Assembly: GCA_964557415.1 (NCBI GenBank)
Contig: CAZLBB010000001.1
Span: forward strand, 3,373-67,372
From: an uncultured Rhodospirillaceae bacterium
GTDB lineage: Bacteria; Pseudomonadota; Alphaproteobacteria; JAEULC01
DNA length: 64,000 nt
Direction: 5' to 3'
Shown: in pieces, positions 6,090-43,974 of the stretch
Position numbering within the stretch: the first letter of the stretch is position 1
Layout of the letters: each line of letters starts with the position of its first letter
Notes under the pieces: model-generated
What the model saw: only the letters and a program-made list of their open reading frames with translations
What the model was told of the DNA's origin: nothing
Databases searched by the model: none
Made by a program: the position numbers and the translations under genes

Positions 6090-6092
6090 CTA

Positions 6093-28905: not shown

Positions 28906-28990
28906 GGTTTCCTCCCGATCGTTGGCGCGATTCTAGTCGGTACCCGCGTCCAAGCCCCACCCGTTGCTCGTCCGGAAATCGGACCGTCAG

Positions 28991-29012: not shown

Positions 29013-29060
29013 CAATCTTGCTAATAATGCGTCCAGTCAGCCGTCCCAAGGGGGTGAAAC

Positions 29061-29990
29061 GTGGCATCCAAGAGCGCGTGGCAGGGCGTATTCCCTGCGG
29101 TGACGACCAAGTTTACGACGACCGATCGCCTGGACATTGCCGAGATGGAGCGCTGTTTCGCGCTTCAGGTCGACGCCGGCGTGCATGGGCTGATCGTCTG
29201 CGGCTCGCTCGGCGAGGCCTCGACGCTCGACCCCGACGAGAAGCTCGAGGTGCTGAAGACGGCGCTGCGCGTCGCCAAGGGCCGCATCCCCGTGCTGCTG
29301 ACGGTGTGCGACGGCTCGACAAGGCGCGCGCAGGCGATGGCCGAGGCCGGCGCCAAGGCGGGCGCGGCCGGCTTCATGGTGCTGCCCGGCCTGCCCTACA
29401 AGTCGGACCCGCGCGAGACGATGGCGCATTTCCGTGCCGTGGCGAAGGCCGGCGGCCTGCCGGTCATGATCTACAACAACCCGGTGGCCTACGGCGTCGA
29501 CCTGACGCCCCCGGTGCTGGCCGAGCTCGCCTCCGAGCCGCTGTTCGCCGCGGTCAAGGAATCGTCCGACGACGTCCGCCGCGTGACCAAGATCATCAAC
29601 CTCACGGGCGACCGCTATCGCATCTTCACCGGCGTCGACAACCTGGCGCTGGAGAGCATCGCCATGGGCGCGGTCGGCTGGGTCGCGGGCCTCGTCTGCG
29701 CCTTCCCCGACGAGACCATGGCGGTTTGGAACCTGGCGCGCGCCGGCCGCATGGACGAGGCGCTCGTGGTCTATCGCTGGTTCCAGCCGCTGCTCGACCT
29801 CGATGTCTCGACCAAGCTGGTGCAGAACATCAAGCTGGTCGAGGCGCTGGTGATCGACACCAACGACCGCTGCCGCGCCCCGCGCCTGCCCTTGGCCGGC
29901 GAGGAGCGCGCCCGCGTCGAGGCGGTGGTCAAGAAGGCGCTGGCCAACCGGCCCAAGCTCGAGAAGCCGAAGCGCGCCAAGTCGGCCTGA
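29061..29990 (+). CDS. DapA/NAL-family (dihydrodipicolinate-synthase-like) class I aldolase/lyase
   Basis: GTG start with an AAGGGGGTG SD. DapA-family motifs (GLIVCGSLGE, the Schiff-base Lys region, MIYNNP). Confidence 0.85.
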   Translation: MASKSAWQGVFPAVTTKFTTTDRLDIAEMERCFALQVDAGVHGLIVCGSLGEASTLDPDEKLEVLKTALRVAKGRIPVLLTVCDGSTRRAQAMAEAGAKAGAAGFMVLPGLPYKSDPRETMAHFRAVAKAGGLPVMIYNNPVAYGVDLTPPVLAELASEPLFAAVKESSDDVRRVTKIINLTGDRYRIFTGVDNLALESIAMGAVGWVAGLVCAFPDETMAVWNLARAGRMDEALVVYRWFQPLLDLDVSTKLVQNIKLVEALVIDTNDRCRAPRLPLAGEERARVEAVVKKALANRPKLEKPKRAKSA

Positions 29991-30014
29991 CGCATCCGGT
30001 TCGATGTGTGGCGC

Positions 30015-30183
30015 TTGACCCTCACCCTCCCGCCGAAACGGCGGGCCCCTCCCTCTCCCGCTGCGCGGGCGAGGGGTTTGAGAATCTGACCCTCGCCACC
30101 CGCGCTTCGCGGGGGGAGAGGGATACGAAGGGTTAGGCGCGGCTTTTTGGCCGCGCCTTACCCGCAGTTGGGTGAGGGGGGAA
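30015..30183. repeat. Intergenic palindromic repeat element, copy A (REP/MITE-like)
   Basis: Terminal imperfect inverted repeats ccctcaccctccc and gggtgaggggg. Internal G/C-rich palindromes and the hairpin aggcgcggc-tttttg-gccgcgcct at 30135..30158. Related in style and motifs (gggagaggg, gggtt) to copies B and C. Confidence 0.5.
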
Positions 30184-30223
30184 CGGCGCCGCACGAGCGG
30201 ATCATCCTTCCTTTGGAAACTCG

Positions 30224-32224
30224 ATGCCCCTCACCCTCACCGTCACCGCCCGCGCCGCCTTCGCCGACGGCCAGGGCTTCGGCGATAGCGGCGCTTACGA
30301 GTACCTGACCGGGCGCGCGGAATACGCGCTCGACCCGAAGGCGCCCGACCTGCAGGCGGTGACCGACATCGCCTTCGCGCCGGTGGGCGCGGACGGCAAG
30401 CTGCGCTTCGCCGCCGATTTCGCGCTGCTGAAGCCGATCGACATGGCGCGCGGCAACCGCCGGGTGTTCTTCGACTATGGCAACCGCGGCAACAAGCGCT
30501 GCCTGCAGTTCTTCAACGACGCGATCGGCTCGAACGCGCCGAGCGCGCCGGAGCATGCCGGCAACGGCTTCCTGATGCGGCGCGGCTACACCGTGGCATG
30601 GCTCGCCTGGCAGGGCGACCTGCAGCCGGGCGAAGGCCGCGTGCTGATCGACCTGCCCGTGGCGACCGACCAGGGCAAGACGATCACCGGCCCGGTGCGC
30701 GTCGAGTACATCGTCAGCGAGCCGAACGTCTTCTCCCTGCCCCTGAGCGGCCAGGCGGCGGCGCGCTCCTATCCCACGGTCTCGCGCGACACGGCCAAGG
30801 CGCAGCTCACGCGGCGGCGCTACGCCGACAGCAAGCGCGAGCCGATCCCGGCCGATGCCTGGTCCTTCGCCCGGCTGGAGCACGGCACGACCGTCGACGG
30901 CGGCGGGCGCGAGCGCGCCGTCATCCCCGTGGACGACTACATCTACCTCGAGAAGGGCTTCGAGCCGGGCTGGATCTACGAGCTGGTCTACACCGCGCGC
31001 GACCCGATCATCCTCGGGCTCGGCCACGTGGCCGTGCGCGACTTCGTCAGCTTCCTGAAGCACGGCGACAGCGGCAATCCGCTCGGGAGAGGGATCGAGA
31101 AGGCCTATGCCTGGGGCCGTTCGCAGACCGGGCGCTGCATCCGCGACTTCGTCTACCTGGGATTCAACGCCGATGCCGCCGGCCGACGCGTATTCGACGG
31201 CGTGATGCCCCATGTCGCCGGCGGCGGCCGCATGTGGATGAACCACCGCTTCGCCGCGATCATGCCGCTGCCCGGCCAGGAATACGAGAACCACTTCACG
31301 CCGGTCGACCGCTTCCCCTTCTCCTACGCGCGCACGACCGACCACCTGACCGGCCGCACCGACGCCATCCTGAAGCGGCCCGAGACCGATCCGCTGGTGA
31401 TCCACACCGACACGGCGACCGAGTACTGGCTGCGGCGCGGCTCGCTGGTCGTGACCGACACGCAAGGCAGCGACATCCCCCTGCCCGACACGGTGCGCGT
31501 CTACATGTGGGCGAGCTCGCAGCACTATGCCGACCCGCAGATGAAGGAGCCGCCGCGCGGCATCTGCCTCTATCCGGCCAACGTGGTCGTCACCTCGATG
31601 CTGTTCCGCGCCGCGCTCGACAACCTCGACCGCTGGGCCACGACCGGCAAGGCGCCGCCGCCGGGCCGCCATCCGCGCCGGGCGGACGGCACGCTGGTCG
31701 CGGCCGAGGAATGGCGCAAGCAGTTCCCCGCCATCCCGGGCGCCGTGATCCCGCGCGGCCCCAGCAAGCTCGACCTGCTGGATTTCGGCCCCGACATCGA
31801 CCGTGGCCTGATCGCGAAGGAGCCGCCCTTGGTGATCGCCGGCAAGCGCTATGCCGTGCTGGTGCCGGCGGTCGACCCGGACGGCAACGACGTCGCCGGC
31901 GTCCGCGCGCCGATGGTGCAGGCACCGCTTGCCACCTATGCCGGCTGGAACATGCGCGCGCCGGGCCTGGGATTCGGCGCCATGGGGCCGATCGTCGGCA
32001 GCACGATCGCTTTTGCCGACACCCCGGAGGAGCGCGAGCGCACCGGCGACCCGCGCCGCTCGGTGTTCGAACGCTACGGCAGCAAGGACGTCTATGTGCG
32101 CGCAATCACCGAGGCCGCCCGCCGCCTCGTCGCCGACGGGCTGATGCTGGAGGAGGACATCGAGCGCGCCGCCGCCCGCGCGGCCCACTGGGGCCGCCCG
32201 CGCCACAACGTGAAGCTGGACTGA
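30224..32224 (+). CDS. Uncharacterized 666-aa protein (no signal peptide, no recognisable catalytic motif)
   Basis: Long ORF with coding-like composition. The 5' end (ATGCCCCTCACCCTCACC) resembles the terminal repeat of element A. Confidence 0.6.
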   Translation: MPLTLTVTARAAFADGQGFGDSGAYEYLTGRAEYALDPKAPDLQAVTDIAFAPVGADGKLRFAADFALLKPIDMARGNRRVFFDYGNRGNKRCLQFFNDAIGSNAPSAPEHAGNGFLMRRGYTVAWLAWQGDLQPGEGRVLIDLPVATDQGKTITGPVRVEYIVSEPNVFSLPLSGQAAARSYPTVSRDTAKAQLTRRRYADSKREPIPADAWSFARLEHGTTVDGGGRERAVIPVDDYIYLEKGFEPGWIYELVYTARDPIILGLGHVAVRDFVSFLKHGDSGNPLGRGIEKAYAWGRSQTGRCIRDFVYLGFNADAAGRRVFDGVMPHVAGGGRMWMNHRFAAIMPLPGQEYENHFTPVDRFPFSYARTTDHLTGRTDAILKRPETDPLVIHTDTATEYWLRRGSLVVTDTQGSDIPLPDTVRVYMWASSQHYADPQMKEPPRGICLYPANVVVTSMLFRAALDNLDRWATTGKAPPPGRHPRRADGTLVAAEEWRKQFPAIPGAVIPRGPSKLDLLDFGPDIDRGLIAKEPPLVIAGKRYAVLVPAVDPDGNDVAGVRAPMVQAPLATYAGWNMRAPGLGFGAMGPIVGSTIAFADTPEERERTGDPRRSVFERYGSKDVYVRAITEAARRLVADGLMLEEDIERAAARAAHWGRPRHNVKLD

Positions 32225-32227
32225 CCC

Positions 32228-33823
32228 CTACGCCACGCCGGCGACATACCCGTCGCGCTGCGGGTCGGCGCCGCCTTCGAGCATGCCGTCGAACATCGTG
32301 ATGCCGTGCGGCGCCGCGAAGGGAAAGGTCGCGGGCCAGCGCTTGACCTTGTAGCCCATCGCCTGAAGCTCGCGCTCGACGCGGCGCGGGATGCGGTTGC
32401 CGATGTCGATCGTGTTGGTGGTGGCCGAGAAGCGCGGCGCCTCGACGGCTTCCTGCATCGTCATGCCCCAGTCGAACACGTTGAGGATGACCTGCAGGAT
32501 GGCGACGCCGATCCAGGCGCCGCCGGGCGACGACACGGTCGCCACCGGCTTGCCGCCCTCGAACACGATGGTCGGGGTCAGCGACGAGAAGCGGCGCTTG
32601 CCCGGCGCGATCGACCCGGCGCGGCCGGGCCGCGGGTCGTACCAGTTCATCGCGCCGTTGAGCATGAAGCCGGTGCCGGGCACGATCACGCCGGAGGGCG
32701 TGCCGAGCGTATGCGTCAGCGAGACGACCATCCCGTCGGCATCGACGCAGCTGACCGTCGTGGTGCCCTTGGCATCGCCGGTCATGCGCGCGAAGTCGAC
32801 CTTGTGGCCGCGCTTGATGCCGGCGGCGCATTGCGCGGCGTAGCCGTCGGACAACAGGTGGTCGAGCGGCGCCGGCTGGAAGTCCGGGTCGCCGATGTGA
32901 TTCTCCTTGTCGCGCCCGGCGATCTTCATCGCCTCGGCGACGACACGGATGTAATCGGCGCTGTTGTGGCCGAGCGATACGAGGTCGAAATGCTCGAGGG
33001 TGCGCAGCATCTCGGCCACCACGATGCCGCCGGCGGGCGGCGGCGGCAGGGCGAAGACGCGGCCGCGATAGCCGACCTTGAGCGGCTTTTCGGTGCGGGG
33101 CTTGAAGTTCCTCAGGTCGTCGAGAGTCAGCGGCCCGCCGTTTGCTTCCATGTCCGCGACGATGCGCCGGGCGATCGCGCCGGTGTAGAAGCTCTCCGCC
33201 CCGTCGCGGGCGATGCCGCGGAGCGTCTCCGCCAGTTCCTGGTTGCGCACCGCGTCGCCGACCCGCTTGGGCGTGCCGTCCGGCCGCAGATAGAGCCGAG
33301 CGCCGTCCGGCGTGAAGGCGAGCTTCGCGCGATAAGGCAGGCGCCCGAGCCAAGCCTCGTCGAGCGAGAACATGGTGTAGACATGCGGGCGCACGATCCA
33401 GCCTTCCTCGGCCGCGGCGATAGCGGCGTCGAAGAGCTGGCCCCAGGGCTTGCGGCCGAACCGGGCATGGGCGAGGCCGAACACCCGCAGGATTCCCGGC
33501 GTGGTGACCGCGGTGCGTCCAAGCTCGTTGACGCCGCCCTTGAGCACGAAGCCGTAGCCGTCGGCGCATTCGCGCTCGAACAGATGCGCCCACATGTCGG
33601 GCCTCGAGCTGCCGGGACAGGTGGACAGCCCGTCGAGCACGAGATTGGCGCCCGTCCTGGGATCGTAGATCTGCAGGCTGCCGAGCCCGCCGATGCCGCT
33701 CATCAGCGGATCGACCACGCCCTGCGTGAACGCCGCAGCCAGCGCCGCGTCCAGCGCGTTGCCGCCGGCGCCGAGCATCTCCGATCCCGCCTCGACCGCT
33801 TCCGGCTGCGGCGCCGTGATCAT
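32228..33823 (-). CDS. Gamma-glutamyltransferase-family protein (Ntn hydrolase), no signal peptide
   Basis: ORF trimmed to MITAPQPEAVEAGSEML. GGT motifs (GGNALDAALA, the catalytic Thr region GTTTVSCVDADG, PGTGFMLN). Confidence 0.85.
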   Translation of the reverse strand: MITAPQPEAVEAGSEMLGAGGNALDAALAAAFTQGVVDPLMSGIGGLGSLQIYDPRTGANLVLDGLSTCPGSSRPDMWAHLFERECADGYGFVLKGGVNELGRTAVTTPGILRVFGLAHARFGRKPWGQLFDAAIAAAEEGWIVRPHVYTMFSLDEAWLGRLPYRAKLAFTPDGARLYLRPDGTPKRVGDAVRNQELAETLRGIARDGAESFYTGAIARRIVADMEANGGPLTLDDLRNFKPRTEKPLKVGYRGRVFALPPPPAGGIVVAEMLRTLEHFDLVSLGHNSADYIRVVAEAMKIAGRDKENHIGDPDFQPAPLDHLLSDGYAAQCAAGIKRGHKVDFARMTGDAKGTTTVSCVDADGMVVSLTHTLGTPSGVIVPGTGFMLNGAMNWYDPRPGRAGSIAPGKRRFSSLTPTIVFEGGKPVATVSSPGGAWIGVAILQVILNVFDWGMTMQEAVEAPRFSATTNTIDIGNRIPRRVERELQAMGYKVKRWPATFPFAAPHGITMFDGMLEGGADPQRDGYVAGVA

Positions 33824-33869
33824 CGAGCGGGCGGCCGGCAGCCGCCGCGCGGGCCTGGGCATGGGTCGA

Positions 33870-34079
33870 CTAGCGGCGGCTCGGGCTCGGCAGGACCAGC
33901 TTCGCCACCATATGGATGATGGCGCCCAGCACGAACCAGGTCGCCAGGAACGCGCCGGTCTCGAGCAGGAAGCTCTTGAACTTGTAGAACAGCTCCGCGA
34001 TCACCAGCGCGGCGATGAAGCTGACTGGCTCGCTGAGCCAGACCTGGCGATCCTTGAGCGACTTCAGCAGCGTGAACAT
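33870..34079 (-). CDS. Small 69-aa two-TM membrane protein
   Basis: MFTLLKSLKDRQVWLSEPVSFIAALVIAELFYKFKSFLLETGAFLATWFVLGAIIHMVAKLVLPSPSRR, with a strong AAAGGAGGA SD 6 nt upstream. Lies 23 nt downstream of the BNR giant gene. It is in the ORF track only as the tail of the antisense ORF 33870..36368. Confidence 0.5.
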   Translation of the reverse strand: MFTLLKSLKDRQVWLSEPVSFIAALVIAELFYKFKSFLLETGAFLATWFVLGAIIHMVAKLVLPSPSRR

Positions 34080-34102
34080 CCAGTCCTCCTTTGAATCGGG
34101 AA

Positions 34103-37100
34103 TCAGCCGACCGCCGCCAAGCCCGCCTGGTCCATGGCAGCGTTGAGGGCGGGCAGCGACTTCTCGCGAACGCGCTGCCAGCGCGCCGTCAGGGCGTCGA
34201 GCTCGGCGGTCAGCACGGCATAGACGTCGCGCGCCTGCTGCGCGGGGGCGAAGTCGCCGCTGTCGACCGTGTCGAACAGGGCGTTGAGCTTCTCGTGCAG
34301 GCCGCTGCCGTAGAGCTGCGCGCCGGGATAGTGCACGTCGATCAAGGCGCCCCGGATCGATCGCAGCTCGGCGGCGAGCTTGGCCGCCCCGTCGCGCACG
34401 GCGGCGCGCTCGCCGGCTCGGCGCCCGACGAGCGCGGTCTGCGCCAGCAGCGCGTCGATGTCGTTGATCATCGTGTTGACCGCGGTGAGCCTGCCGATGA
34501 TCTCGCCGAGGAAGATGAACTGCGCCTTGAGGTCGGCGAGCTTCGTCCTGACGCGCGGGTCGCGCTCGATCTCGAAGGACTGCGTCTGGCTCGCGCCGTC
34601 GACCACCAAGCGCACCGCGTAGCGGCCCGGCACGACCATGGCGCCGTCGGCGCGGTTCCACGGCTCCAGGTCCTTCGCCAGCACATTGGGTACGCCAATG
34701 AGACGCCGGTTCCACAGGAAGCGGTTGACGCCCGGCTCGGCGGGCACATCGGCGTAGTGCCTCAGCTCCCTGCCCTTCTCGTCGAGGAAGGTCAGGCTCG
34801 CGCCGCCCTTCGGCTTTTCGGGCAGGTAGTACTGCACGACCACGCCGTAGGGCGGGTTCTTGCCGGAATCGAGCAGCAGGTTGTCGTAGCTGCCGTCCGG
34901 CTGCTTCAGCGGCAGCACGCGGATCACGTTGGTGCCGGTGCGCGGATAGCTGATCATTCCCGGCCAGGCCGGACCGCGCGACGCGGTCGCCTGCGCCGCG
35001 ACCCCGCCGAAGCCGCCGATCACGCGCATGCGCACGCGCGAGCGCGGCTGGAACAGGTGCGCCGTCGGCTTGCCGCTCTTCTTTTCCTTGATCAGGTCGT
35101 AGAGCTGGTGGAACGGCGTCAGGTCGTCGAGGATCCAGATCGACCTTCCGTGCGTCGCCACCACCATCTCGACGCCCTTGATCACGAGGTCGTAGATCGG
35201 CGCCACCGGCAGGTTGCCGCCCAGGCGGTGCCACTGGCCGCCGTCGTCGAACGAGACGTAGATGCCGGTCTCGGTGCCGCAATAGAGCAGGCCGCGGCGG
35301 CTGGGGTCCTCGCGGATCGTGCGCGTGAATTCGCCGTCGGGAATGCCGGAGACGATCTTCGTCCAGCTCTTGCCGCCGTCCGCGGTCTTGTAGAGATAGG
35401 GCCTGGTGTCGTCGAGCTTGTAGCGCGTCGCGGCGATGTAGCAGGCGTCCTGGTGATGCGGCGAGGCCTCGACGATGCTGATCAACGCCCATTCGGGCAG
35501 CGCGTTGGCCCTGGCGCCCTCGACCTTCGCGTTCCTGCCGTCGGGCGTGATGTCGTCCCAGCGCTTGCCGCCGTCCCTGGAGCGGTGCACGAGCCCGTCG
35601 TCCGTGCCGCACCATAGCCAGTTGCGCCGCTGCGGCGATTCGGCCAGCGCGAAGATCGTGCAATAGACCTCGGCGCCGGTGTTGTCGCGCGTGATCGGCC
35701 CGCCCGAGGGGCCGAGCCGCGACCTGTCGTTGCGCGTCAGGTCGGGGCTCACCACCTCCCAGCACGCCCCGTTGTCGCGCGAGCGATGCAGGTGCTGCGA
35801 GCAGACCCACAGCACGTCGGGATCGTGCCGGCTGTAGTGGATCGGGAAGGTCCAGTTGAAGCGGTACTTCAGCGCGTCGGCGCCGACGCCCCAGCCGTAG
35901 AGTTCGGGCCAGACCGTGTTCTGCCAGTCCTGTCCCGTCTTGTGGTCGAACAGGTACATGACGTCGTTGGTGCAGCGCCGCCCGATCGGACCGGAGGCGA
36001 CCACCAGATCGGGGTTGTCGTGCTTGATGGCGATGTAGCCGCTCTCGCCGCCGCCCGGCTTGATCCAGTCGCGCTCGGTGATCGCCCCGATCGGCGAGGC
36101 GCTGGGGATGCTGATCGCGGTGTTGTCCTGCTGCGAGGCGTAGACGCGGTAGGGGAACCGGCTGTCGGTGGTGACGTGGTAGAGCTGCGCGGTCGGCTGG
36201 TTGTAGATCGACGACCAGGACTGGCCGCCGGTGAAACTGACACAGGCGCCACCGTCGTTGCCCTCGATCATGCGCTTCGGATTCTTCGGGTCGATCCACA
36301 GCGCATGGTCGTCGCCATGCGGCGTCGGCACCTGCAGGAAGGTCCTGCCGGCGTCGATCGACTTCCACAGACGGTAGTTCTGCACATAGACCGTGTCGGG
36401 GTCCTGCGGATCGGCGGTCACGTGCATGTAGTACCAGGGCCGCGTGCGCAGGCCGGAGAACTCGGACGCGCGCTCGAAGCTCCGCCCGCCGTCGTCGGAG
36501 CGGAACATGGCGCCGTCGTCGGCCTCGACCAGCGCCCAGACGCGGCCATAGCCGCGCCCGCCGACCGGCTCGGGCGAGACGGCGACGCCGATCTTGCCGA
36601 GCAGGCCCTTGGGCAGGCCGGACGCGCGCGAGATGTCAGTCCAGGTGTCGCCGCCGTCGGTCGAGCGCCACAGCCCGCATTCCTCGCCGCCGCTGATCAG
36701 CACGTGCGGATAGCGCTGCGCCTGCCAGATCGGCGCGTAGAGGATGTTCGGGTTGACCGGGTCGAGCGCGATGTCGTGCGAGCCGGCGCGGTCGCTCTTG
36801 TAGAGCACGTTCTCCCAGGTCCTGCCGCCGTCCTTCGAGCGGAACACGCCGCGCTGCCGGTTGCGGCCCCAGGCATGGCCCAGCGCCGCGACATAGACGA
36901 GATCCGGGTCGGCCGGATGCACGACGATGCGGCCAATATGGCGCGTGTCGTCGAGGCCGAGATGGGTCCAGGTCTTGGCCCCGTCGACCGACTTGTAGAC
37001 GCCGTCGCCGTGCGACACGTCGTTGCGGATGCAGGCCTCGCCGGTGCCGGCATAGATGACATTGGGCGCCGAGGGCGCTACGGCGATCGCGCCGACCGCC

Positions 37101-37321
37101 GCGGTACGGAAGAACCCGTCGGTCATGCAGAGCCAGGTCTGCCCGGCGTCGGTCGTCTTCCACACGCCGCCGGCACAGGCGCCGAAATAGAAGGTGGCAG
37201 GATCCGCCGGGCAGCCGGCGACGGCCACCACGCGCCCGCCGCGATGCGGGCCGATCAGACGCCAGTCCAGGCTGCTTAGGAGGCTCGCCTGAATCCCCTG
37301 TACCGCGCTCGCCAAGGTCAT
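34103..37321 (-). CDS. 1072-aa BNR/Asp-box repeat protein (sortilin/VPS10- or GH74-like double beta-propeller), no signal peptide
   Basis: More than 10 SxDxGxTW-type repeats (TDAGQTW, SVDGAKTW, SKDGGRTW, STDGGDTW, SIDAGRTF, SRDGGKRW, TADGGKSW). ORF trimmed to MTLASAVQG. Confidence 0.8.
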   Translation of the reverse strand: MTLASAVQGIQASLLSSLDWRLIGPHRGGRVVAVAGCPADPATFYFGACAGGVWKTTDAGQTWLCMTDGFFRTAAVGAIAVAPSAPNVIYAGTGEACIRNDVSHGDGVYKSVDGAKTWTHLGLDDTRHIGRIVVHPADPDLVYVAALGHAWGRNRQRGVFRSKDGGRTWENVLYKSDRAGSHDIALDPVNPNILYAPIWQAQRYPHVLISGGEECGLWRSTDGGDTWTDISRASGLPKGLLGKIGVAVSPEPVGGRGYGRVWALVEADDGAMFRSDDGGRSFERASEFSGLRTRPWYYMHVTADPQDPDTVYVQNYRLWKSIDAGRTFLQVPTPHGDDHALWIDPKNPKRMIEGNDGGACVSFTGGQSWSSIYNQPTAQLYHVTTDSRFPYRVYASQQDNTAISIPSASPIGAITERDWIKPGGGESGYIAIKHDNPDLVVASGPIGRRCTNDVMYLFDHKTGQDWQNTVWPELYGWGVGADALKYRFNWTFPIHYSRHDPDVLWVCSQHLHRSRDNGACWEVVSPDLTRNDRSRLGPSGGPITRDNTGAEVYCTIFALAESPQRRNWLWCGTDDGLVHRSRDGGKRWDDITPDGRNAKVEGARANALPEWALISIVEASPHHQDACYIAATRYKLDDTRPYLYKTADGGKSWTKIVSGIPDGEFTRTIREDPSRRGLLYCGTETGIYVSFDDGGQWHRLGGNLPVAPIYDLVIKGVEMVVATHGRSIWILDDLTPFHQLYDLIKEKKSGKPTAHLFQPRSRVRMRVIGGFGGVAAQATASRGPAWPGMISYPRTGTNVIRVLPLKQPDGSYDNLLLDSGKNPPYGVVVQYYLPEKPKGGASLTFLDEKGRELRHYADVPAEPGVNRFLWNRRLIGVPNVLAKDLEPWNRADGAMVVPGRYAVRLVVDGASQTQSFEIERDPRVRTKLADLKAQFIFLGEIIGRLTAVNTMINDIDALLAQTALVGRRAGERAAVRDGAAKLAAELRSIRGALIDVHYPGAQLYGSGLHEKLNALFDTVDSGDFAPAQQARDVYAVLTAELDALTARWQRVREKSLPALNAAMDQAGLAAVG

Positions 37322-37385
37322 TCTCTCCCCTTCACGGGCGCGCACGGGGCGCGCCGTATCGCTCCGAAATCACGGCGCCGACCGG

Positions 37386-38288
37386 TTACCGCCGATAGCG
37401 CCGCTGCACCATGAGGTTGGCGGCGGCCGTGAGCACGAGCGTCGCCGACATGAGGATGAAGGCGACGGCGCTGCCGAGCGGCCAGTTGCTCTTGATCGCG
37501 AACTGGATGTAGACGAGCGGCCCCATCATGACGAACTGCGGCCCGCCCAGCAGCACCGGCGTGGCATAGGCGTTCATCGTGAGGATGAAGCAGAAGATTC
37601 CGCCGGCGACGAAGCCGGGCAGTGCCAGCGGCAGCAGCACGCGGCGGAACATGGTCCAGGGGCCGGCGCCCAGGCTGAAGGCCGCCTCCTCGACCGCGCG
37701 GTCGATGCCCTCGATCACGCTCTGCAGCGTCAGCACGACATAGGGCAGGTTCACGGCCAGGATGCCGACGATGACGGCGGTCTCGGTGAACATGATGGTC
37801 AACGGCTCGCCGATCAACCCGAGCCACTGCAGGCTGACGTTGAGAAAGCCCTTGTTGCCGAACAGGGTCATCCATCCGGCCGCGCGCACCGCGTTGCCGA
37901 CGAACAGCGGCAGCACGACCAGCATGATCAGCAGGTGCTTGTACCGGCTCTGCGTCCGCGCGATCACGTAGGCGAGCGGAAACGCAAGGACCACGCAGAT
38001 CGCGGTGACGATCACGGCGACGCGCAGCGTGCGATAGAACGCGGCGAGGAAATACGGATCGGTAAAGAACAAGACGTACTGCTTGATCGTGAACGCGTCG
38101 ATCATCAGCACGCCGGGCTTGAAGTCGTTCAGGCTGTAGCGGAACAGGAACAGGATCGGCAGCAGCAGTCCGACCGTGACGAAGATCGTCGCCGGCCCGA
38201 TCAAGAGTCCGGCGGTCGACAGCCGCCCGCCGCGCATTTCGCGCGCGGCGAGCGACTGCAACGTGCCGGCCGTGGCGGACGCGGTCAT
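37386..38288 (-). CDS. ABC transporter permease (PotB/PotH-like)
   Basis: 300 aa, 6 TM segments and an EAA-like loop (EEAAFSLGAGPWTMFRRVLLPLALPG). Confidence 0.85.
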   Translation of the reverse strand: MTASATAGTLQSLAAREMRGGRLSTAGLLIGPATIFVTVGLLLPILFLFRYSLNDFKPGVLMIDAFTIKQYVLFFTDPYFLAAFYRTLRVAVIVTAICVVLAFPLAYVIARTQSRYKHLLIMLVVLPLFVGNAVRAAGWMTLFGNKGFLNVSLQWLGLIGEPLTIMFTETAVIVGILAVNLPYVVLTLQSVIEGIDRAVEEAAFSLGAGPWTMFRRVLLPLALPGFVAGGIFCFILTMNAYATPVLLGGPQFVMMGPLVYIQFAIKSNWPLGSAVAFILMSATLVLTAAANLMVQRRYRR

Positions 38289-38298
38289 GCCTCCGTCC

Positions 38299-38459
38299 TG
38301 TCCCCCCTCCCCTTGCGGGAGAGGGTTAGGGGAAGGGGTATGTTACCGCGAGGCACGTCGTGCCCGACGTGGAAAGAGTGTTCCCGCGCTACCGCGCGGA
38401 AACCCCTCCCCCAGTCCCCCTCCCGCCCCTTCGACAAGAGCTCAGGAGGGAGGGGGAAC
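38299..38459. repeat. Intergenic palindromic repeat element, copy B (REP/MITE-like), between the binding-protein and permease genes
   Basis: Starts gtcccccctccccttgcgggagagggttagggg, which is near-identical to the start of copy C. The right end gggagggggaac is an imperfect inverted copy. Several internal hairpins (ggcacgtcgtgcc, ccgcgctaccgcgcgg). Confidence 0.55.
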
Positions 38460-38501
38460 TGAAATATCGTCCCGTCGGGCACTGTTCGGACCTTCGCGCT
38501 G

Positions 38502-39587
38502 CTAGGCCTTGAACTGCTTGTCCCAGAAGTCGCGCAGGTCCGGGCCCTTCTTGGTGAGGAACTCCAGGTCCGGGTTGACCAGCAAGGCCGCCTCTTCCTC
38601 GGAGAAGCCGATGCGCTTCCTGAGTTCGGGGTCGACCTTGGCGTTGCTGACGACCGGGTTGTAGCCCATGTCGACGGCGAAGGCCTCCTGCGCCGATGGC
38701 TCGAGCGCCGAGTTGAGGAAGGCATAGGCGCCTTCCTTGTTCGGCGCGTTCTTTGGGATGGTGAAGCCCGACATGTAGGTGATGATGCCGTCCTTGGGCG
38801 CGATCGTCTGCACCGGGATGCCGGCGTTCTGCCACTGCACCGCGCGCGCCTTCCACATGATGCAGAGCCCGATCTCCTCGGTCTTGAGCCCTTGTGCCAG
38901 CGCCTCGTTGGTCGGGTAGATCCGCGGCTTCAGCTTCTTCAGCTCCAGCAGCATCTTCTTGGCGGTCTCGAAGTCACCGGTCTTGCCGCCGCCGGCCAGC
39001 GCCGCAGCCATGGTCGTGTAGTTGAACTGGATGTCGATCACGCCGACCTTGCCCTGGTGCTTCGGGTCCCACAGATCGACGATCTTGGTCGGCGGCGTCG
39101 GGATCAGCTTCGGGTTGTAGAGCACGACCTTGCCGCTGTAGATGTGCGGCGAGATGTACGAGCCCTTGTCGATGCTGAAGTTCTTCAGGATGTTCTTGGA
39201 GTTCGGCATCTTCGCCGGGTCGAGCTTCTCCAGGAGCCCGAGCTCGGTCAGCTCGCCGATGTCGGTGTCGGCGAGCGCCTGGATGTCGGACGTGCCCTTG
39301 GGCAGACGCGCCTCGGCCTGAACCTTGGTCTTGCGCTGCTGGCTGCCGAGATCGTCGTGCACCATCTCCCAGCCCTTCGGCGCCATCAGCGGGTTGGAGA
39401 TGTTCTTGGCGAGCAGCTTGGAATAGTCGCCGCCCCAGGTGCCGAGCACAACTTTCTTGCTCTGCGACCAGGCTTGGCCGGTCGGCCCGAAGATGCCGAG
39501 CGCGCTCGCGCCGGCAACGGCCGCGGCGCCGCCCTTGAGCGCCTCGCGGCGGGTGATGATGGTGGGTGTCCCCAGACGTTTGGTCAT
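38502..39587 (-). CDS. ABC transporter periplasmic binding protein (PotD/PotF-like, family 1)
   Basis: ORF trimmed to MTKRLGTPTIITRREALKGGAAAVAGASALG, a Tat signal. PotD-like fold sequence. Confidence 0.85.
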   Translation of the reverse strand: MTKRLGTPTIITRREALKGGAAAVAGASALGIFGPTGQAWSQSKKVVLGTWGGDYSKLLAKNISNPLMAPKGWEMVHDDLGSQQRKTKVQAEARLPKGTSDIQALADTDIGELTELGLLEKLDPAKMPNSKNILKNFSIDKGSYISPHIYSGKVVLYNPKLIPTPPTKIVDLWDPKHQGKVGVIDIQFNYTTMAAALAGGGKTGDFETAKKMLLELKKLKPRIYPTNEALAQGLKTEEIGLCIMWKARAVQWQNAGIPVQTIAPKDGIITYMSGFTIPKNAPNKEGAYAFLNSALEPSAQEAFAVDMGYNPVVSNAKVDPELRKRIGFSEEEAALLVNPDLEFLTKKGPDLRDFWDKQFKA

Positions 39588-39633
39588 CGTGTCTCTCCTC
39601 CTGTTTGAGCCGTTGTCGAACGCATCCGGCGCG

Positions 39634-40704
39634 TCAGGCCTGCGGCCTGCCGGCCTCCTCCGCAAACACGACGCCGGCCTCGGACGGCCAGCCGACCTCG
39701 ACCTTGTCGCCCTCGCTCGGCAGTCTCCCGTCGGCGCGGTTCGGCTGGCTGACCACGACGCGATCGGCCGCCGAGACGCGCACGTGCACGTCGATGTTGG
39801 CGCCGAGATAGGAGACGAACTCCACCGTACCCGGCAGGCGGTTGGGCAGGCCCTGCGCCGCGGGACCGAGCGCCAGCCGCTCGGGCCGGAGCGCGATCAC
39901 CGCCGGGCCGGCCTGGCCGCCGGCGCAGGCGATCTTGAGGCCGCCCGCCGTCTCGAACTGGCCAGGGCCGACCACCTTGCCCGGCAGGATGTTGCTGCGG
40001 CCGACGAAGCCGGCGACGAAGCGGTCGGCCGGCCGCTCGTAGAGGTCGCGCTGCGAGCCGACCTGACGCACCTCGCCCTCGGACATGACCACCAGCCGGT
40101 CGGCCATGATCAGCGCCTCTTCCTGGTCGTGCGTCACCATCACCGTGGTGATGCCGAGCTGGCGCTGCAGCTCGCGGATCTCCACGCGCACCGTCTCGCG
40201 CAGCTTGGCGTCGAGGTTCGACAGCGGCTCGTCCAGCAGCAGCACGTCGGGCCGGATGGCGAGCGCGCGCGCCAGCGCCACGCGCTGCTGCTGCCCACCC
40301 GAGAGCTGGCGCGGCAGGCGCTCGGCGAAGCCGTCGAGCCGGACCATGCGCAGCGCCTCGGCGACGCGCGGCTTGGTCTCGGCCGGCGCGATCTTGCGCA
40401 TCTCGAGGCCGAAGGCGACGTTCTCCGCCACGGTCAGGTGCGGGAACAAGGCATAGCTCTGGAATACCATCCCGGCGTTGCGCTTCCACGGCGGCAGCGC
40501 CGTGACCTCGCGCCCGCCCAGGCGTACGCGCCCGCCGGTTGGCGCGACGAATCCGGCGATCATGCGCAAGGTCGTGGTCTTGCCGCAGCCGCTCGGCCCC
40601 AGCAGCACGACGAACTCGCCGTCGGCGATGTCGAGCGTGACGTCGCTGACCGCGACCGTCGGGCCGAAATGCTTGGAAAGATGCTGCAGTTCGAGCCGCG
40701 CCAT
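39634..40704 (-). CDS. ABC transporter ATP-binding protein (PotA-like, with C-terminal TOBE-like domain)
   Basis: Walker A GPSGCGKTT, LSGGQQQRVALARAL and Walker B LLLDEPLSNLD. Confidence 0.9.
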   Translation of the reverse strand: MARLELQHLSKHFGPTVAVSDVTLDIADGEFVVLLGPSGCGKTTTLRMIAGFVAPTGGRVRLGGREVTALPPWKRNAGMVFQSYALFPHLTVAENVAFGLEMRKIAPAETKPRVAEALRMVRLDGFAERLPRQLSGGQQQRVALARALAIRPDVLLLDEPLSNLDAKLRETVRVEIRELQRQLGITTVMVTHDQEEALIMADRLVVMSEGEVRQVGSQRDLYERPADRFVAGFVGRSNILPGKVVGPGQFETAGGLKIACAGGQAGPAVIALRPERLALGPAAQGLPNRLPGTVEFVSYLGANIDVHVRVSAADRVVVSQPNRADGRLPSEGDKVEVGWPSEAGVVFAEEAGRPQA

Positions 40705-40708
40705 TTCC

Positions 40709-41536
40709 CTACACCACGCGCGAGAGCTTGACGAAACGGTCTGTAATGATCATCGCGCCCGCGATCAGCCCGATCTGCAGCACGGAGACCGCGGCGATGG
40801 TCGGGTCGATCTTCCATTCCAGGTACTGCAGGATCGCGATCGGCAGCGTGGTGCGGCCGGCGCCGACCAAAAACAGCGTCATCTCGAGATTGCCGAACGA
40901 GACGACGAAGCCGAACAGCGCCGCCGCGACGATGCCCGGGCGGATGGTCGGCAGCGTCACGCGGAAGAAGGTCCGAACCGGCGTGGCCCCGAGATTCTGC
41001 GCCGCCTCCTCGATGCTGCGGTCGAAGCCGGCGAGGCTCGCCGTCACCAGGCGCACGCACCAGGGAATGACCAGCAGGATGTGGCCGGCGACAAGGCCGG
41101 CGATCGAGCCGAGGATCGGCAGTTCGGTCCAGATCGTGACTTCGACGTGGAACACGTAGATCGAGGTGCCGAGCACGATGCCCGGCACGACCAGCGGCAT
41201 CAGCAGCAGGCTGTTGAGCGCTTCGCGGCCGGGAAAGCGGAAGCGCGACACGCACAGCGCCGCCGGCACGCCGATCGACAGGCCCACGACCATGGCCGTC
41301 ACCGCGACCTGCAGGCTGAGCAGGAAGCCGTCGAAGAACTTCGGGTTGTTCCAGATCGAGGCGAACCAGCGCAGGCTGTAGCCGTCGGGCGGAAACGACG
41401 GGATCTCCTGGCGGAAGAAGGCAAGCCAGGTGACGAAGAACAGCGGCAGCAGGATGAAACCCAGCACGGCGCCGGCGGCGCCGTTGAGCGCCCAGCGCCC
41501 GAGCGTGCGGCTGTACACGGCGCCTTGCGAGGTCAT
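40709..41536 (-). CDS. ABC transporter permease (PotC/PotI-like)
   Basis: ORF 40709..41731 trimmed to MTSQGAVYSRTLGRWALNGAAGAVLGFILLPL. EAA loop EEAAQNLGATPVRTFFRVTLP. Confidence 0.85.
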   Translation of the reverse strand: MTSQGAVYSRTLGRWALNGAAGAVLGFILLPLFFVTWLAFFRQEIPSFPPDGYSLRWFASIWNNPKFFDGFLLSLQVAVTAMVVGLSIGVPAALCVSRFRFPGREALNSLLLMPLVVPGIVLGTSIYVFHVEVTIWTELPILGSIAGLVAGHILLVIPWCVRLVTASLAGFDRSIEEAAQNLGATPVRTFFRVTLPTIRPGIVAAALFGFVVSFGNLEMTLFLVGAGRTTLPIAILQYLEWKIDPTIAAVSVLQIGLIAGAMIITDRFVKLSRVV

Positions 41537-41665
41537 GCCGGGTCTCGACGGTCGCGCGCGACCGGGGCCCGTGCGCCGCCACGGCGCGCCCCGCGCTGCT
41601 GCTGCCGTTTTCCCCGATCGATCATGCGCCCCCGCGCCGAAGTTGCGACTCCATAGCAAGGCTGC

Positions 41666-41687
41666 CGATTTTATACAATATCCAATC
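41666..41687. promoter_or_regulatory. AT-rich 22-bp operator-like motif (copy 2, reverse orientation) inside the inverted repeat GCCGATT-N13-AATCGGC
   Basis: cgattttatacaatatccaatc is the reverse complement of copy 1 with one mismatch. It lies in the 230-bp divergent promoter region between the Pot-like operon start and the second GntR gene. Confidence 0.55.
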
Positions 41688-41766
41688 GGCATATTGCGGC
41701 ACGCCGTGTAGCCATGATACCAGGGCTGCAAGGCAAGCGCCCATAAGCCGCGCGTCCATACCTCTT

Positions 41767-42489
41767 ATGCAGGGCATCGCCCGCTTCCGGATCGAGGGCA
41801 TGAGCATTTCCGCCCCCAGGACCCCGAGCATGCCGTTCTCGCACCGCACGGTGGCCGCCTCGGCCGCGGACGCGATCCGGCGCAAGATCTTCGATGGCCA
41901 GCTCAAGGACGGCGAGCCGCTGCGCCAGGACCTGCTCGCCGCCGAGTTCGGCATCAGCCGCACGCCGGTACGCGAGGCGCTGGTGCAGCTCGAGGCCGAG
42001 GGCCTGGTCAAGATCGAGCCCCACAAGGGCGCCGTCGTCGCCGGCACGTCGCTGGCCAGCGTCGAGGAAACCTTCGAATTGCGCGAGGTTCTGGAGCCGA
42101 TGCTGCTCGAGCGCTCGGCGCCGCGCCTGACCGAGGACGACTTCCGCCAGATCGACGCCGTGCTGCAGGAATACTCGGACGAACTGCGCAATCACAACGT
42201 CAAGCGCTGGGGCGAGCTCAACACGCTGCTGCACGCCAAGCTCTATGCGCGCGCCGAGCGGCCGCAGATCCAGGCGATCGTCGACAAGCTGCTCAATACG
42301 TCGGACCGGTTCACCCGGCTGCAGCTGATCCTGACCCACGACCTCGAGCGCGCCGAGCGCGAGCACGACGAGATCGTCACGCTGTGCCGCAAGGGCGACT
42401 TCGCCGCCGCCGCCGCGACGCTGCGGCGCCACATCCGCGCGGTCAAGGACGCACTGGTCAAGTTCCTGGCGGAGCGGCCGGGCGCGTAG
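41767..42489 (+). CDS. GntR-family transcriptional regulator (FadR/FCD subfamily), second copy
   Basis: wHTH LRQDLLAAEFGISRTPVREAL plus an FCD domain. The start is ambiguous (41767, 41800 or 41830). Confidence 0.8.
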   Translation: MQGIARFRIEGMSISAPRTPSMPFSHRTVAASAADAIRRKIFDGQLKDGEPLRQDLLAAEFGISRTPVREALVQLEAEGLVKIEPHKGAVVAGTSLASVEETFELREVLEPMLLERSAPRLTEDDFRQIDAVLQEYSDELRNHNVKRWGELNTLLHAKLYARAERPQIQAIVDKLLNTSDRFTRLQLILTHDLERAEREHDEIVTLCRKGDFAAAAATLRRHIRAVKDALVKFLAERPGA

Positions 42490-42852
42490 CCCCGCGCTAC
42501 CGCGGTGTTGCGCCGTGCGGGGCGGGCCGACTTGGAGCGGAGATCGCATGCAAGAGCGTGGGAGCCGCTGGCGACGTCGGCCCGGTGCGGGGAGCGGACT
42601 GGCGAACAGGCGGGCGGGACAAGGCAGTCTCCGCCATTGCGCGCCCGGGATCGCACCAGCTGCAACCGGTTTCTTCCACCCCTCTTCAAGCGGTCATCGC
42701 GAGAGCGCGGCCGACCAAGACGAGGATCGCGCCGAACAGCAAACGGCGATCCAAGATCTGGCCCGACATTGCAGCCGCAGCGGCGACGTTGCTGCTGGCA
42801 GCGAGGGGCCGCCGTGCTACGATAGCCCATAGTTTCAGTTCTGGTCGTCTTC

Positions 42853-43824
42853 ATGTCGAGCGAAGGCGCCGCGGCCACGCGGCCCGATCCCTCACTGCCA
42901 AGCCTCGTCCAACGCGACGCAAGCCCTTCCATGCGAAGCGTCGGGGCTATGCTGCTGCTCGCCGTCATGTGGGGGCTCTCGATCCCGGTAACGAAGCTCG
43001 GCCTGGTGACAATGCCGCCGTTGACGCTGACGGCGTTGCGGTTCGCGGTCGCCGTGCCACTGCTGTTCCTTTTCGTTGTGGGAAGGCAGCGGCTTCCGTG
43101 GCGGGCCTTCCCGCACGTGGCCGCGCTTGGAATCCTCGGCATTGGCGTAGGCCAGGTCGCGCAAACACTGGGCGTGGTCGGCACGTCGGCATCTGTCGGC
43201 ACCGTCATCTCCGCAACCATTCCGGTCTTCGTCGTCATCTTCGCCGCGCTGCGCCTGAAACAGGCCGTGTCCGGTCGGCAAGCATCGGGGCTGCTGGCAG
43301 CTTTCGTCGGAATCGCGCTGGTCGCGTCTGGAAATGGCGGCGAGGCGGGCACGGCGTCCGAAACCACCGCGGCCGGTGTCGGTCTCATGCTGCTCTCCGC
43401 GCTCGCGGTCGCTTTCTATTACGTCTGGAGCGTCGAACTCACGAACACGTATGGCACCGCCACCGTGGCGGCTTGGAGCACCTTCTTCGGGTTGGCAGTG
43501 TTGTTGCCGTGGGCAGGCTGGGAGATGTGGCGGGTTCCGTTCCACATCACCGCCGAGGCCGTCGGGGCCGCAGTATACCTTGGCGTCGTGGTGACAGCAG
43601 CGGGCCTCTTCGTGTGGCTCCATCTGCTACGCATAGTCCCGGCTCGCACCGCAGCCAGCGTGCAATACCTCCAGCCGATAGTGGGCATCGTCGCTTCATC
43701 TGTGATGTTCGGTGACAGGCTCGGATTTCTCTTCGTTGCCGGAGTGATACTGGTTCTGGCCGGCCTTGCTCTATCCATGGCCTCGCGGCGCAAAGGCGCG
43801 GATGCTCTGCAGGCATCGCCCTAG
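42853..43824 (+). CDS. DMT-superfamily (EamA-like) transporter
   Basis: Ten TM segments with two EamA-like halves. The start could be 42931 (MRSVGAMLLLAV). Confidence 0.75.
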   Translation: MSSEGAAATRPDPSLPSLVQRDASPSMRSVGAMLLLAVMWGLSIPVTKLGLVTMPPLTLTALRFAVAVPLLFLFVVGRQRLPWRAFPHVAALGILGIGVGQVAQTLGVVGTSASVGTVISATIPVFVVIFAALRLKQAVSGRQASGLLAAFVGIALVASGNGGEAGTASETTAAGVGLMLLSALAVAFYYVWSVELTNTYGTATVAAWSTFFGLAVLLPWAGWEMWRVPFHITAEAVGAAVYLGVVVTAAGLFVWLHLLRIVPARTAASVQYLQPIVGIVASSVMFGDRLGFLFVAGVILVLAGLALSMASRRKGADALQASP

Positions 43825-43974
43825 GGTGGCCAGTCCCGCAAGTCCGCCTCGGGTGAGAAGCAGACTCACGTTCGCGACACCCACACCGCCCGAGCCGCCG
43901 CCATCCCCCGATTTGAACCCCACCGCCGCCGCCGTGTAGCGTAGGATATCGCCCCGATCGCGGAGGTTCGGCCG

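Follow-up and report, generated by a model that had tools for sequence, protein, structure and literature searches.

A 64,000-nucleotide (nt) stretch of contig CAZLBB010000001.1 from an uncultured Rhodospirillaceae bacterium (the window) carries, on its minus strand between positions 32228 and 41536, seven genes for an ATP-binding cassette (ABC) importer, a very large BNR-repeat protein, a 69-amino-acid (aa) membrane protein and a gamma-glutamyltransferase (GGT)-family protein. We propose, with moderate confidence, that these genes belong to a catabolic locus that is induced by its substrate, an imported organic compound containing nitrogen; a peptide or a conjugate of a peptide or amino acid is most likely. 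An earlier reading of the sequence alone (the sequence-only reading) had suggested the cytoplasmic processing of an imported gamma-glutamyl or glyco-conjugated amine; of this proposal the cytoplasmic route is retained as the best reading, whereas the context of orthologous genes favors peptides. The operon is of an ordinary type. The novelty lies in the evidence on its uncharacterized parts: a cytoplasmic subclade of a very large secreted propeller family, the tight pairing of this subclade with an unannotated small membrane protein, and the placement of its genes within operons for peptide and proline catabolism.

The strongest functional clue comes from the gene context of BNR orthologues in other phyla. 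We surveyed 78 BNR loci, mostly from different species representatives, and clustered and annotated ten flanking genes per locus. As raw counts, an SBP_bac_5 peptide-binding protein was encoded at 25 of the 78 loci, an enolase-superfamily (MR_MLE) enzyme at 21, an Opp/Dpp permease at 20, an M81/MlrC peptidase at 15, an Opp ATPase at 11, an aldehyde dehydrogenase and a beta-lactamase-like protein at 8 each, dipeptidyl peptidase IV (DPP-IV) at 7, a prolyl oligopeptidase at 6, proline dehydrogenase at 5 and an M24 Xaa-Pro peptidase at 3. A proline-specific peptidase gene lies directly upstream of the BNR gene, on the same strand, at 11 loci, and one locus reads OppBC-OppBC-SBP5-DPPIV-BNR-Aldedh-ProDH with a gap of 30 bp before the BNR gene. 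These neighbors suggest that the cytoplasmic BNR clade works in peptide, and especially proline-peptide, catabolism.

The BNR protein of the window (34103-37321, minus strand, 1072 aa) matches the Pfam family Sortilin-Vps10 (PF15902) with an E value of 5e-24 (85.3 bits versus a gathering cut-off of 33). The count of more than 10 SxDxGxTW repeats in the sequence-only reading was generous, as 5 Asp-boxes are strict (S.D.G..W), 9 satisfy a looser pattern and about 11 are reached by adding two degenerate copies by eye. The absence of signal peptides from the BNR and GGT-family proteins, in contrast, was borne out. Neither N-terminus contains a hydrophobic stretch; the BNR open reading frame (ORF) can be extended upstream by a maximum of 8 codons (to a GTG at 37345) and the GGT ORF already uses the earliest start codon available downstream of a stop, so that no revision of the start sites could produce a cryptic signal peptide. 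This state is, as had been supposed, unusual for the BNR family, in which many full-length relatives have classical signal peptides: a signal-like N-terminus was present in 34 of 52 scorable relatives and absent from the other 18. The family is very large (7,711 representative clusters at E < 1e-30) and carries no annotation beyond "glycosyl hydrolase" or "PSII assembly factor-like". Within it, the clade of the window's protein is signal-less throughout, in Alphaproteobacteria, Chloroflexota, Rokubacteria and other phyla. Orthologues across Alphaproteobacteria and Chloroflexota are 59-93% identical, and the persistence of a signal-less clade at 59% identity between these phyla fits a conserved enzymatic role.

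An AlphaFold model of the BNR protein, built with 71 homologues, has a mean predicted local distance difference test score (pLDDT) of 86.8 and a predicted template modeling (TM) score of 0.88. It comprises propellers (residues ~20-735), a beta-sandwich (~800-920) and a helical bundle (~928-1065). In a Foldseek search of the PDB, the top 23 matches were all xyloglucanases of glycoside hydrolase family 74 (GH74), with E values of 2.5e-24 to 1e-19, TM scores (normalized by target) of 0.50-0.59 and ~15% identity over the predicted N-terminal 750 residues; the search returned no closer solved structure. Sortilin, SorLA and SorCS2 gave TM scores, normalized in the same way, of 0.18-0.22 with root mean square deviations of 18-33 Å. 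As in GH74 enzymes, the model contains two tandem beta-propellers that form a cleft. A sortilin-type single 10-bladed wheel with a 10CC module was rejected because of these poor TM scores and the modeled architecture, in which two propellers precede a beta-sandwich and a helical bundle. Among the sialidase, GH74 and sortilin folds that the sequence-only reading had left to be distinguished, the model thus points to a GH74-like tandem propeller and away from the sortilin wheel. Searches of the BNR family against PDB sequences, by sequence and by profile, produced blade-level, out-of-register matches from which catalytic residues, such as a counterpart to the GH74 aspartate pair (D70 and D480 in Xgh74A), cannot be placed.

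Conservation picks out a set of residues in the propeller protein. In a set made up of the query and 108 diverse relatives, the polar residues outside the Asp-boxes that reach 93% conservation or more are R99, D337, H339, D356, Y381, Q398, D399, R487 and R726; D337 and H339 lie in an HGDxH motif and Q398 and D399 in a QQD motif. A segment reading GACAGGVWK, Cys49 included, is invariant in the signal-less clade, whereas relatives with signal peptides vary there (S, G, N, D or T), making C49 a candidate for a clade-specific functional residue. Two paralogous signal-less BNR genes lie close together in some Chloroflexota (4168-7275 and 10001-13129 in locus L054; 9-2369 and 2533-5727 in L058). There is also a second, distant subfamily of signal-less BNR-like proteins, of ~1165 aa and 24-31% identity, with a Lys/Arg-rich N-terminal extension; the gene for this protein is directly downstream of a gene of the 69-aa family in L158 (10210-13707) and in L136, L150, L152, L159 and L170.

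The 69-aa protein (33870-34079, minus strand) belongs to no family in Pfam, NCBIfam or PHROGs. We found 221 clusters of relatives, 64-106 aa in length and all unnamed, which share the invariant core AELFYKFxSFLLETGAFLxTW. Records of Reyranella, Thalassobaculum and Aurantimonas contain homologues of the 69-aa protein or of the Abhydrolase_10 protein described below. The description of this protein as having two transmembrane segments is plausible; it is uncertain, however, as the first hydrophobic segment is only weakly hydrophobic and contains conserved charged residues. No similarity to holins was detected, the best PHROGs match being to an unnamed membrane protein (E = 0.11), and the 24 members scanned had no Pfam family in common. 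We counted a locus as informative if each flank reached 2.5 kb or more. In 16 of the 21 loci of this kind, a BNR-family gene and the 69-aa gene share a strand and lie no more than 1.2 kb apart, the BNR-family gene being upstream in 12 and downstream in 4. One of the five exceptions is on a Reyranella sp. chromosome (L090, 7728-9219), where a gene of the 69-aa family follows a gene for a 405-aa protein without a Pfam match and no BNR match occurs in the locus. Over a wider set of 84 loci (80 from a metagenome scan plus four), a BNR-family gene adjoins the 69-aa gene in 48, and most of the others are contigs of 1-2 kb. The genome survey also contains one Rokubacteria and one Dehalococcoidia locus in which the 69-aa gene is directly upstream of the BNR gene. 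The BNR partners include distant subfamilies (24-31% identity), and none of the 19 partner N-termini examined has a signal-like segment. Judged by this association across genomes, signal-less BNR proteins of Proteobacteria and other phyla have a dedicated partner in the 69-aa protein, with which they would be in physical contact.

Conservation of the wider gene set is partial. The order of GntR-family regulator, transporter and BNR gene is kept in loci L001, L005/L006, L007, L009, L098, L099, L103 and L105, at 74-93% BNR identity to the window, and by this measure regulator, transporter and BNR protein are the stable alphaproteobacterial core. The full arrangement of the window recurs in L001 to L004 (93% BNR identity), of which L001 is complete and L002-L004 are partial contigs. 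At 78% BNR identity, L098 has the GntR gene, four transporter genes, BNR, the 69-aa gene, a GGT gene (product 71% identical) and convergent Abhydrolase_10 and dihydrodipicolinate synthase (DHDPS)-family genes, and L107 (74%) has the half that runs from BNR to DHDPS. L005 and L006 (81%) encode the regulator, transporter, BNR, Abhydrolase_10 and DHDPS proteins without the 69-aa protein and without GGT, the stop codons of the BNR and Abhydrolase_10 genes abutting. L007, L103 and L105 (74-77%) combine BNR and 69-aa genes without GGT. In L091 there is no BNR gene and no Pot-type transporter; a GntR gene, the 69-aa gene and GGT stand there with convergent Abhydrolase_10 and DHDPS genes. Finally, the BNR, Abhydrolase_10 and 69-aa genes are co-directional in L092 (50%). 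The triad of BNR, 69-aa and GGT genes that the sequence-only reading had thought might be conserved in other genomes was, therefore, confined to the window's own clade, L098 and L107, and was missing at 81% BNR identity. The recurrence of the 69-aa, GGT, Abhydrolase_10 and DHDPS genes in shuffled arrangements speaks for a functional link and against a triad of fixed composition. We considered, and rejected, recent acquisition of the 69-aa and GGT genes from a foreign source, since their third-position guanine-plus-cytosine (GC) content equals that of neighboring genes and the arrangement is kept elsewhere at 71-78% identity.

The convergent Abhydrolase_10 and DHDPS-family genes, which had not been included in the sequence-only reading, are more faithful partners than GGT. 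The Abhydrolase_10 protein (30224-32224, plus strand, 666 aa; PF20091, E = 3.3e-39) is encoded convergently with the operon, and its relatives are linked to BNR or to the 69-aa/GGT pair in L001, L005, L007, L091, L092, L094, L098 and L107. Its model (pLDDT 80) gave weak alpha/beta-hydrolase matches in the PDB: MHETase at 3e-4, and acetyl-xylan and glucuronoyl esterases with TM scores of 0.2-0.3. These matches provide no clue to specificity, and kinship to S15/CocE-type peptidases was not supported by them. Upstream of the Abhydrolase_10 gene is the gene for an enzyme of the DHDPS/N-acetylneuraminate-lyase (NAL) family (29061-29990, plus strand, 309 aa), whose PDB relatives are putative DHDPS proteins (7e-37). 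Genes of this family are annotated as PF00701 in L001, L005 and L091, and four loci of the Chloroflexota type have such a gene beside the BNR gene. Between the stop codons of the Abhydrolase_10 and GGT genes there are only 3 nt (32222-32230, TGAcccCTA); this leaves no space for a terminator, so that the two convergent messages must overlap or run into one another. The BNR gene itself abuts the Abhydrolase_10 gene in this way in L005.

The importer consists of a PotC/PhnV-like permease (40709-41536, 275 aa), an ATPase with a C-terminal TOBE_2 domain (39634-40704, 356 aa), an SBP_bac_8 binding protein with the PotD fold and a twin-arginine signal (38502-39587, 361 aa) and a PotB/PotH-like permease (37386-38288, 300 aa), all on the minus strand. 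The earlier label "polyamine-type" is apt for fold and composition: a TOBE-domain ATPase, two BPD_transp_1 permeases and a binding protein of the PotD/PotF fold make up a complete PotABCD component set. It is not sustained by the equivalog scores or by the polyamine-contact residues. None of the PotA, PotB, PotC or PotD equivalog cut-offs of NCBIfam was reached. The PotC-like permease (BPD_transp_1, 4.1e-11) has PotC as its top NCBIfam model with 114 bits versus a cut-off of 326, and the PotB-like permease (BPD_transp_1, 1e-9) has PotB with 163 versus 348. For the ATPase (ABC_tran, 1.8e-37; TOBE_2, 2e-19) the top models are PhnT2 and PotA, each under its cut-off (PotA 365 versus 482), and models of Phn (2-aminoethylphosphonate) transporters score at least as high as Pot models. 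The binding protein (SBP_bac_8, 5.4e-28) has PotD as its nearest solved structure (E = 3e-21) and scores 70.7 versus 582 with the PotD equivalog. In a pairwise HMMER alignment, which is of low identity and moderately reliable, D168, E171, D257 and W255 of PotD correspond to I186, N189, S and Y, and only W229 is kept. As these contact residues are replaced, the ligand is probably not a polyamine. Export by the twin-arginine translocation (Tat) pathway is indicated by the translated N-terminus, TRREALKGGAAAVAGASALGIFGPTGQAWS-Q, which has the twin-arginine motif TRREALK, of the S/T-R-R-x-F-L-K type; behind the motif come a hydrophobic region and a cleavage site of the A-x-A type.

A similar picture was obtained for the GGT-family (T03) protein (32228-33862, minus strand, 544 aa), for which the true start is more likely Met14 (33823), as in the 73%-identical homologue of L091. 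This protein matches G_glu_transpept (PF01019) at 3.5e-121 over profile positions 2-512 of 512 and scores 356.5 bits with the TIGR00066 equivalog, marginally below the cut-off of 357.85. The catalytic set of the family (the catalytic, autoprocessing Thr, the second Thr, the Ser-Ser pair and the Gly-Gly oxyanion hole) is intact, T367, T385, S426/S427 and G447/G448 corresponding to T391, T409, S462/S463 and G483/G484 of the Escherichia coli enzyme. Four of six residues of the gamma-glutamyl pocket are replaced, however: R114, N411, Q430 and D433 in E. coli become L79, G387, A404 and W407. The residues concerned hold the alpha-carboxylate and alpha-amino groups of the gamma-glutamyl moiety, D433 being the one for the alpha-amino group, and identical substitutions are present in the homologues of L001 and L091. 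These replacements make activity on gamma-glutamyl substrates doubtful, and, together with the TIGR00066 score, they weaken the expectation that this enzyme acts on such substrates. Nor is the lack of a signal peptide exceptional for a GGT, as had been thought. Cytoplasmic or intracellular GGTs are documented in Staphylococcus aureus, Neisseria meningitidis, Geobacillus, Thermus, Deinococcus and, as YwrD, in Bacillus subtilis (PMC10355420, PMC8062742). The GisABCD-Ggt system of S. aureus, in which an ABC importer is encoded with a cytoplasmic GGT, provides an experimental precedent (PMC10355420).

The layout of the locus is consistent with coordinated expression. Gene order, coordinates and sizes given for the seven minus-strand genes by the sequence-only reading all hold. 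The GC content of the window is high (~68-70%) and third-position GC clearly separates the true reading frames of its genes. The start of the PotC-like gene at 41536 agrees with 275-aa homologues, and an independent gene caller, applied to a Logan contig of the same strain, also gave 1072 aa for the BNR protein and 69 aa for the small protein. From the PotC-like gene to the GGT gene the intergenic gaps are 4, 46, 213 (a repeat element), 64, 23 and 7 nt. Ribosome-binding sites were read directly as AAGGAGG before the 69-aa gene, where a strong Shine-Dalgarno sequence had been predicted, AGGAGG before the binding-protein gene, GGGGAG before BNR and GGAGG before potB. A scan for sigma-70-like promoters found none, and the 3 terminator-like hairpins detected, versus 4.2 expected by chance, are all within coding sequence; independent internal promoters or terminators, which would have spoken against one transcript, thus gave no signal above chance. 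An Rfam search of 31000-43000 produced no match, and 28000-46000 is free of tRNA genes. The co-directional genes, their conserved order and an operator-like motif upstream make one regulated operon plausible, and these genes would be carried by a single transcript.

The regulator gene lies divergently upstream, as had been noted (41767-42489, plus strand, 240 aa). With an N-terminal winged helix (Pfam GntR, 2.3e-17) and a C-terminal FCD domain (3.8e-21), its product belongs to the FadR/FCD subfamily, and the gene is kept at the same position in L001, L005, L007, L009 and L098. The divergent region between the GntR and PotC-like genes is 230 bp long and contains an AT-rich 27-nt motif, GCCGATTGGATATTGTATAAAATCGGC, at 41664-41690, ~128 nt upstream of the PotC-like start, with the inverted repeat CGATT..AATCG. 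In five loci with protein identities of 70-94%, the core of this motif shows no change, whereas the DNA on either side of it has diverged. The motif is, therefore, a good candidate for the GntR operator and promoter, to which the regulator would bind.

The 213-nt spacer between the binding-protein and potB genes (38289-38501) is filled by a repeat element with nested hairpins, resembling repetitive extragenic palindromic (REP) sequences or miniature inverted-repeat transposable elements (MITEs). Four nested inverted-repeat pairs are present, and the predicted RNA fold has a free energy of -124.6 kcal/mol (z = -6.1). The element is found also in the Logan contig of the same strain and is lacking from L001, where BNR is 93% identical, and from L005; the spacer there is 25 nt, which indicates that a dispersed REP/MITE-like repeat was inserted, specifically in this strain, into an operon that was already there. 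Repeat units of 34-39 nt recur at 61731-61764 and 61862-61900, as CCCCTCCC...GGGAGGGG hairpin units in the spacer of two minus-strand genes (61718-61917), and a weaker match occurs at 30052-30076 between the DHDPS and Abhydrolase_10 genes. This distribution suggests a dispersed repeat family in this genome. A REP sequence stabilizes the upstream mRNA in malE-malF; by analogy, the repeat following the binding-protein gene may stabilize the upstream part of the message.

Taken together, these data can be arranged into the following scheme. The FCD-type GntR protein would control one promoter in the 230-bp divergent region. The Tat-exported binding protein, with its PotD fold and a pocket unlike that for polyamines, would capture the solute, which the PotABC-type importer would carry into the cytoplasm. 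There the signal-less, GH74-like tandem-propeller protein would act as the core enzyme on the solute, probably at the membrane with its 69-aa partner, and the products could be processed by the altered-pocket GGT-family protein, an N-terminal-nucleophile amidohydrolase, by the Abhydrolase_10 hydrolase and by the DHDPS-family lyase or deaminase, while the REP-like hairpin insertion might add to the stability of the upstream part of the mRNA. We infer the substrate class, the hydrolytic activity of the propeller protein and the regulation by the GntR protein. Several points weigh against this interpretation. The neighbor figures of the survey are raw counts and not enrichments over a genome-wide background. 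The peptide context derives from Chloroflexota orthologues with Opp-type importers, whereas the alphaproteobacterial importer is Pot/Phn-like and its substrate may differ; moreover, divergent sugar-type ABC genes adjoin BNR in some Chloroflexota loci. The PotD and GGT pockets were mapped by pairwise HMMER alignments at ~25-30% identity. For the propeller protein we can point to no catalytic mechanism, and it could have a binding or scaffold role instead of being an enzyme. Searches of the literature on the BNR clade, the 69-aa family, Abhydrolase_10/PF20091, bacterial Vps10/BNR proteins and a link between BNR and peptides found nothing relevant, and no characterized member of the first three groups. 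A bolder form of the proposal, which we regard as tentative and on balance improbable, is that the 69-aa protein and the signal-less propeller constitute a membrane-associated, two-protein cytoplasmic hydrolase, an unrecognized family for peptides or peptide conjugates that arose from a normally secreted GH74-like scaffold and in which a new active site, possibly dependent on a metal, would be made up of the HGDxH, QQD and GGxE motifs in place of a glycosidase site.

The rival that deserves most attention, though we consider it unlikely, is that the propeller protein is a true glycoside hydrolase, GH74- or sialidase-like, which cleaves a sugar from a glyco-conjugate once this has been imported into the cytoplasm; this comes close to the glyco-conjugated amine of the sequence-only reading, and a hydroxyproline-linked glycopeptide as its substrate is speculation. 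The structural matches are, after all, headed exclusively by GH74 xyloglucanases, the sequence matches are to GH74 and BNR "glycosyl hydrolase" chains and NCBI names the relatives "glycosyl hydrolase". Several Chloroflexota loci have genes for a LacI-type regulator and sugar-type ABC proteins in divergent orientation upstream, and the window encodes a DHDPS/NAL-family lyase and a NanR-like FCD regulator close by. Identity to GH74 is, however, only ~15% and the sequence alignments are in shifted blade registers. Judged by sequence motif, the N-terminal catalytic Asp of GH74 would fall at GACAGG, a segment without acidic residues that is variable in the wider family. The C-terminal beta-sandwich and helical bundle also lie outside the GH74 matches, whose chains have ~700-770 residues versus 1072. 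Furthermore, the neighborhood contains no genes for xyloglucan or sialic acid, and the dominant same-strand neighbors of BNR orthologues are genes for peptidases and proline catabolism. A more specific version, in which a sialidase is coupled to a NanA lyase, was rejected because the fold is a GH74-like twin propeller and not the 6-bladed GH33 type and because sialic-acid genes are lacking.

The remaining rivals concern the partners of the propeller protein. That the 69-aa and GGT genes are passengers downstream of an unrelated transporter-BNR operon is quite improbable. Both are missing from L005/L006, where BNR is 81% identical and its stop abuts that of Abhydrolase_10, and GGT is missing from L007, L103 and L105 despite the 69-aa gene; yet the 69-aa family stands beside BNR-family genes in 16 of 21 informative loci, with distant subfamilies and on either side, the 69-aa/GGT pair accompanies the same Abhydrolase_10, DHDPS and GntR genes even without BNR (L091), and the arrangement is complete in L098 (78% BNR and 71% GGT identity) and retained as its downstream half in L107. 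We give still less weight to the idea that the 69-aa protein is a holin-like or non-classical export factor, so that BNR and perhaps GGT act outside the cell before import. In its favor are the many full-length BNR relatives with classical signal peptides and a very small membrane partner that occurs, at the 19 loci examined, only beside signal-less BNR proteins. Most signal-less BNR genes have no 69-aa neighbor, however (of the Chloroflexota-type loci, only L085 has one), the operons encode importers and cytoplasmic partners (proline dehydrogenase and aldehyde dehydrogenase), and the 69-aa family resembles neither holins nor phage membrane-protein families and has an invariant charged core (E29, K33 and E40) unlike that of a simple pore-former. 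The least probable of these explanations is classical polyamine uptake by PotABCD, joined to gamma-glutamyl or glutathione-type metabolism by a bona fide GGT. PotA, PotB, PotC, PotD and gamma-glutamyltransferase are indeed the best named families, PotD is the closest solved binding protein and hydantoinase/oxoprolinase-family genes lie 14 kb away, but all Pot equivalog scores are far under the cut-offs (70.7 versus 582 for PotD), three of the four PotD polyamine-contact residues mapped are replaced and so are 4 of 6 GGT pocket residues, including the Asp that holds the alpha-amino group. Uptake and cytoplasmic breakdown of a peptide or peptide conjugate thus remains our preferred explanation.

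Other genes flank the locus. Beyond the GntR gene, the block 42853-51792 encodes an EamA transporter, a polysaccharide deacetylase, a DUF1028 protein, a second TOBE-domain ABC ATPase and hydantoinase/oxoprolinase A and B. This block also occurs near the L001 locus and, on the opposite side, in L005, and it may be part of the same metabolic neighborhood. On the other flank, 22606-28905 encodes an 823-aa DAO-FAO_M-GCV_T fusion resembling dimethylglycine and sarcosine dehydrogenases, an aldose 1-epimerase, a D-2-hydroxyacid dehydrogenase and a MetE-like (Meth_synt_2) protein.

These results provide a concrete hypothesis for a family of ~1050-aa BNR/Sortilin-like proteins whose current annotation may mislead. 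They also indicate that the labels "polyamine transporter" and "gamma-glutamyltransferase" overstate what can be said here, as both pockets are remodeled, and that family names can over-predict substrates. The substrate, if identified, could reveal a new route of organic-nitrogen turnover in soil bacteria, and the significance would be clearly greater if the two-protein module were to be a new kind of cytoplasmic hydrolase.

Several known systems resemble parts of this locus. E. coli PotABCD has the same components, a TOBE-domain ATPase, two BPD_transp_1 permeases and a PotD-fold binding protein, and provides the best named family matches; the window differs in its gene order (C-A-D-B), in the Tat signal of its binding protein, in scores far below the equivalog cut-offs and in the loss of the acidic polyamine-contact residues. 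The GH74 xyloglucanases, such as Clostridium thermocellum Xgh74A (2CN2/2CN3), share the tandem Asp-box beta-propeller; they are secreted, however, whereas the BNR protein is signal-less, is ~15% identical to them, has an extra 330-residue C-terminal beta-sandwich and helical bundle and is encoded in a window without xyloglucan context. With sortilin/Vps10 receptors the BNR protein has in common a Pfam match over the cut-off and Asp-box blades, but sortilin is a eukaryotic membrane receptor with one 10-bladed propeller and a Cys-rich 10CC module. Proline-specific peptide operons, with an Opp/Dpp importer, S9 or M24 peptidases and PutA-type enzymes, are the setting in which the Chloroflexota BNR orthologue is co-directionally embedded; no role for a twin propeller has been described in them, and the window has a Pot/Phn-like importer and no S9 or M24 peptidase. 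Finally, the GisABCD-Ggt system of S. aureus likewise combines an importer with a signal-less cytoplasmic GGT-family enzyme, and the Gis substrate is imported intact and cleaved inside the cell (PMC10355420). This system has a different class of binding protein and neither a propeller protein nor a small membrane partner, and its Ggt is a proven gamma-glutamyl hydrolase, unlike the enzyme of the window with its four replaced pocket residues.

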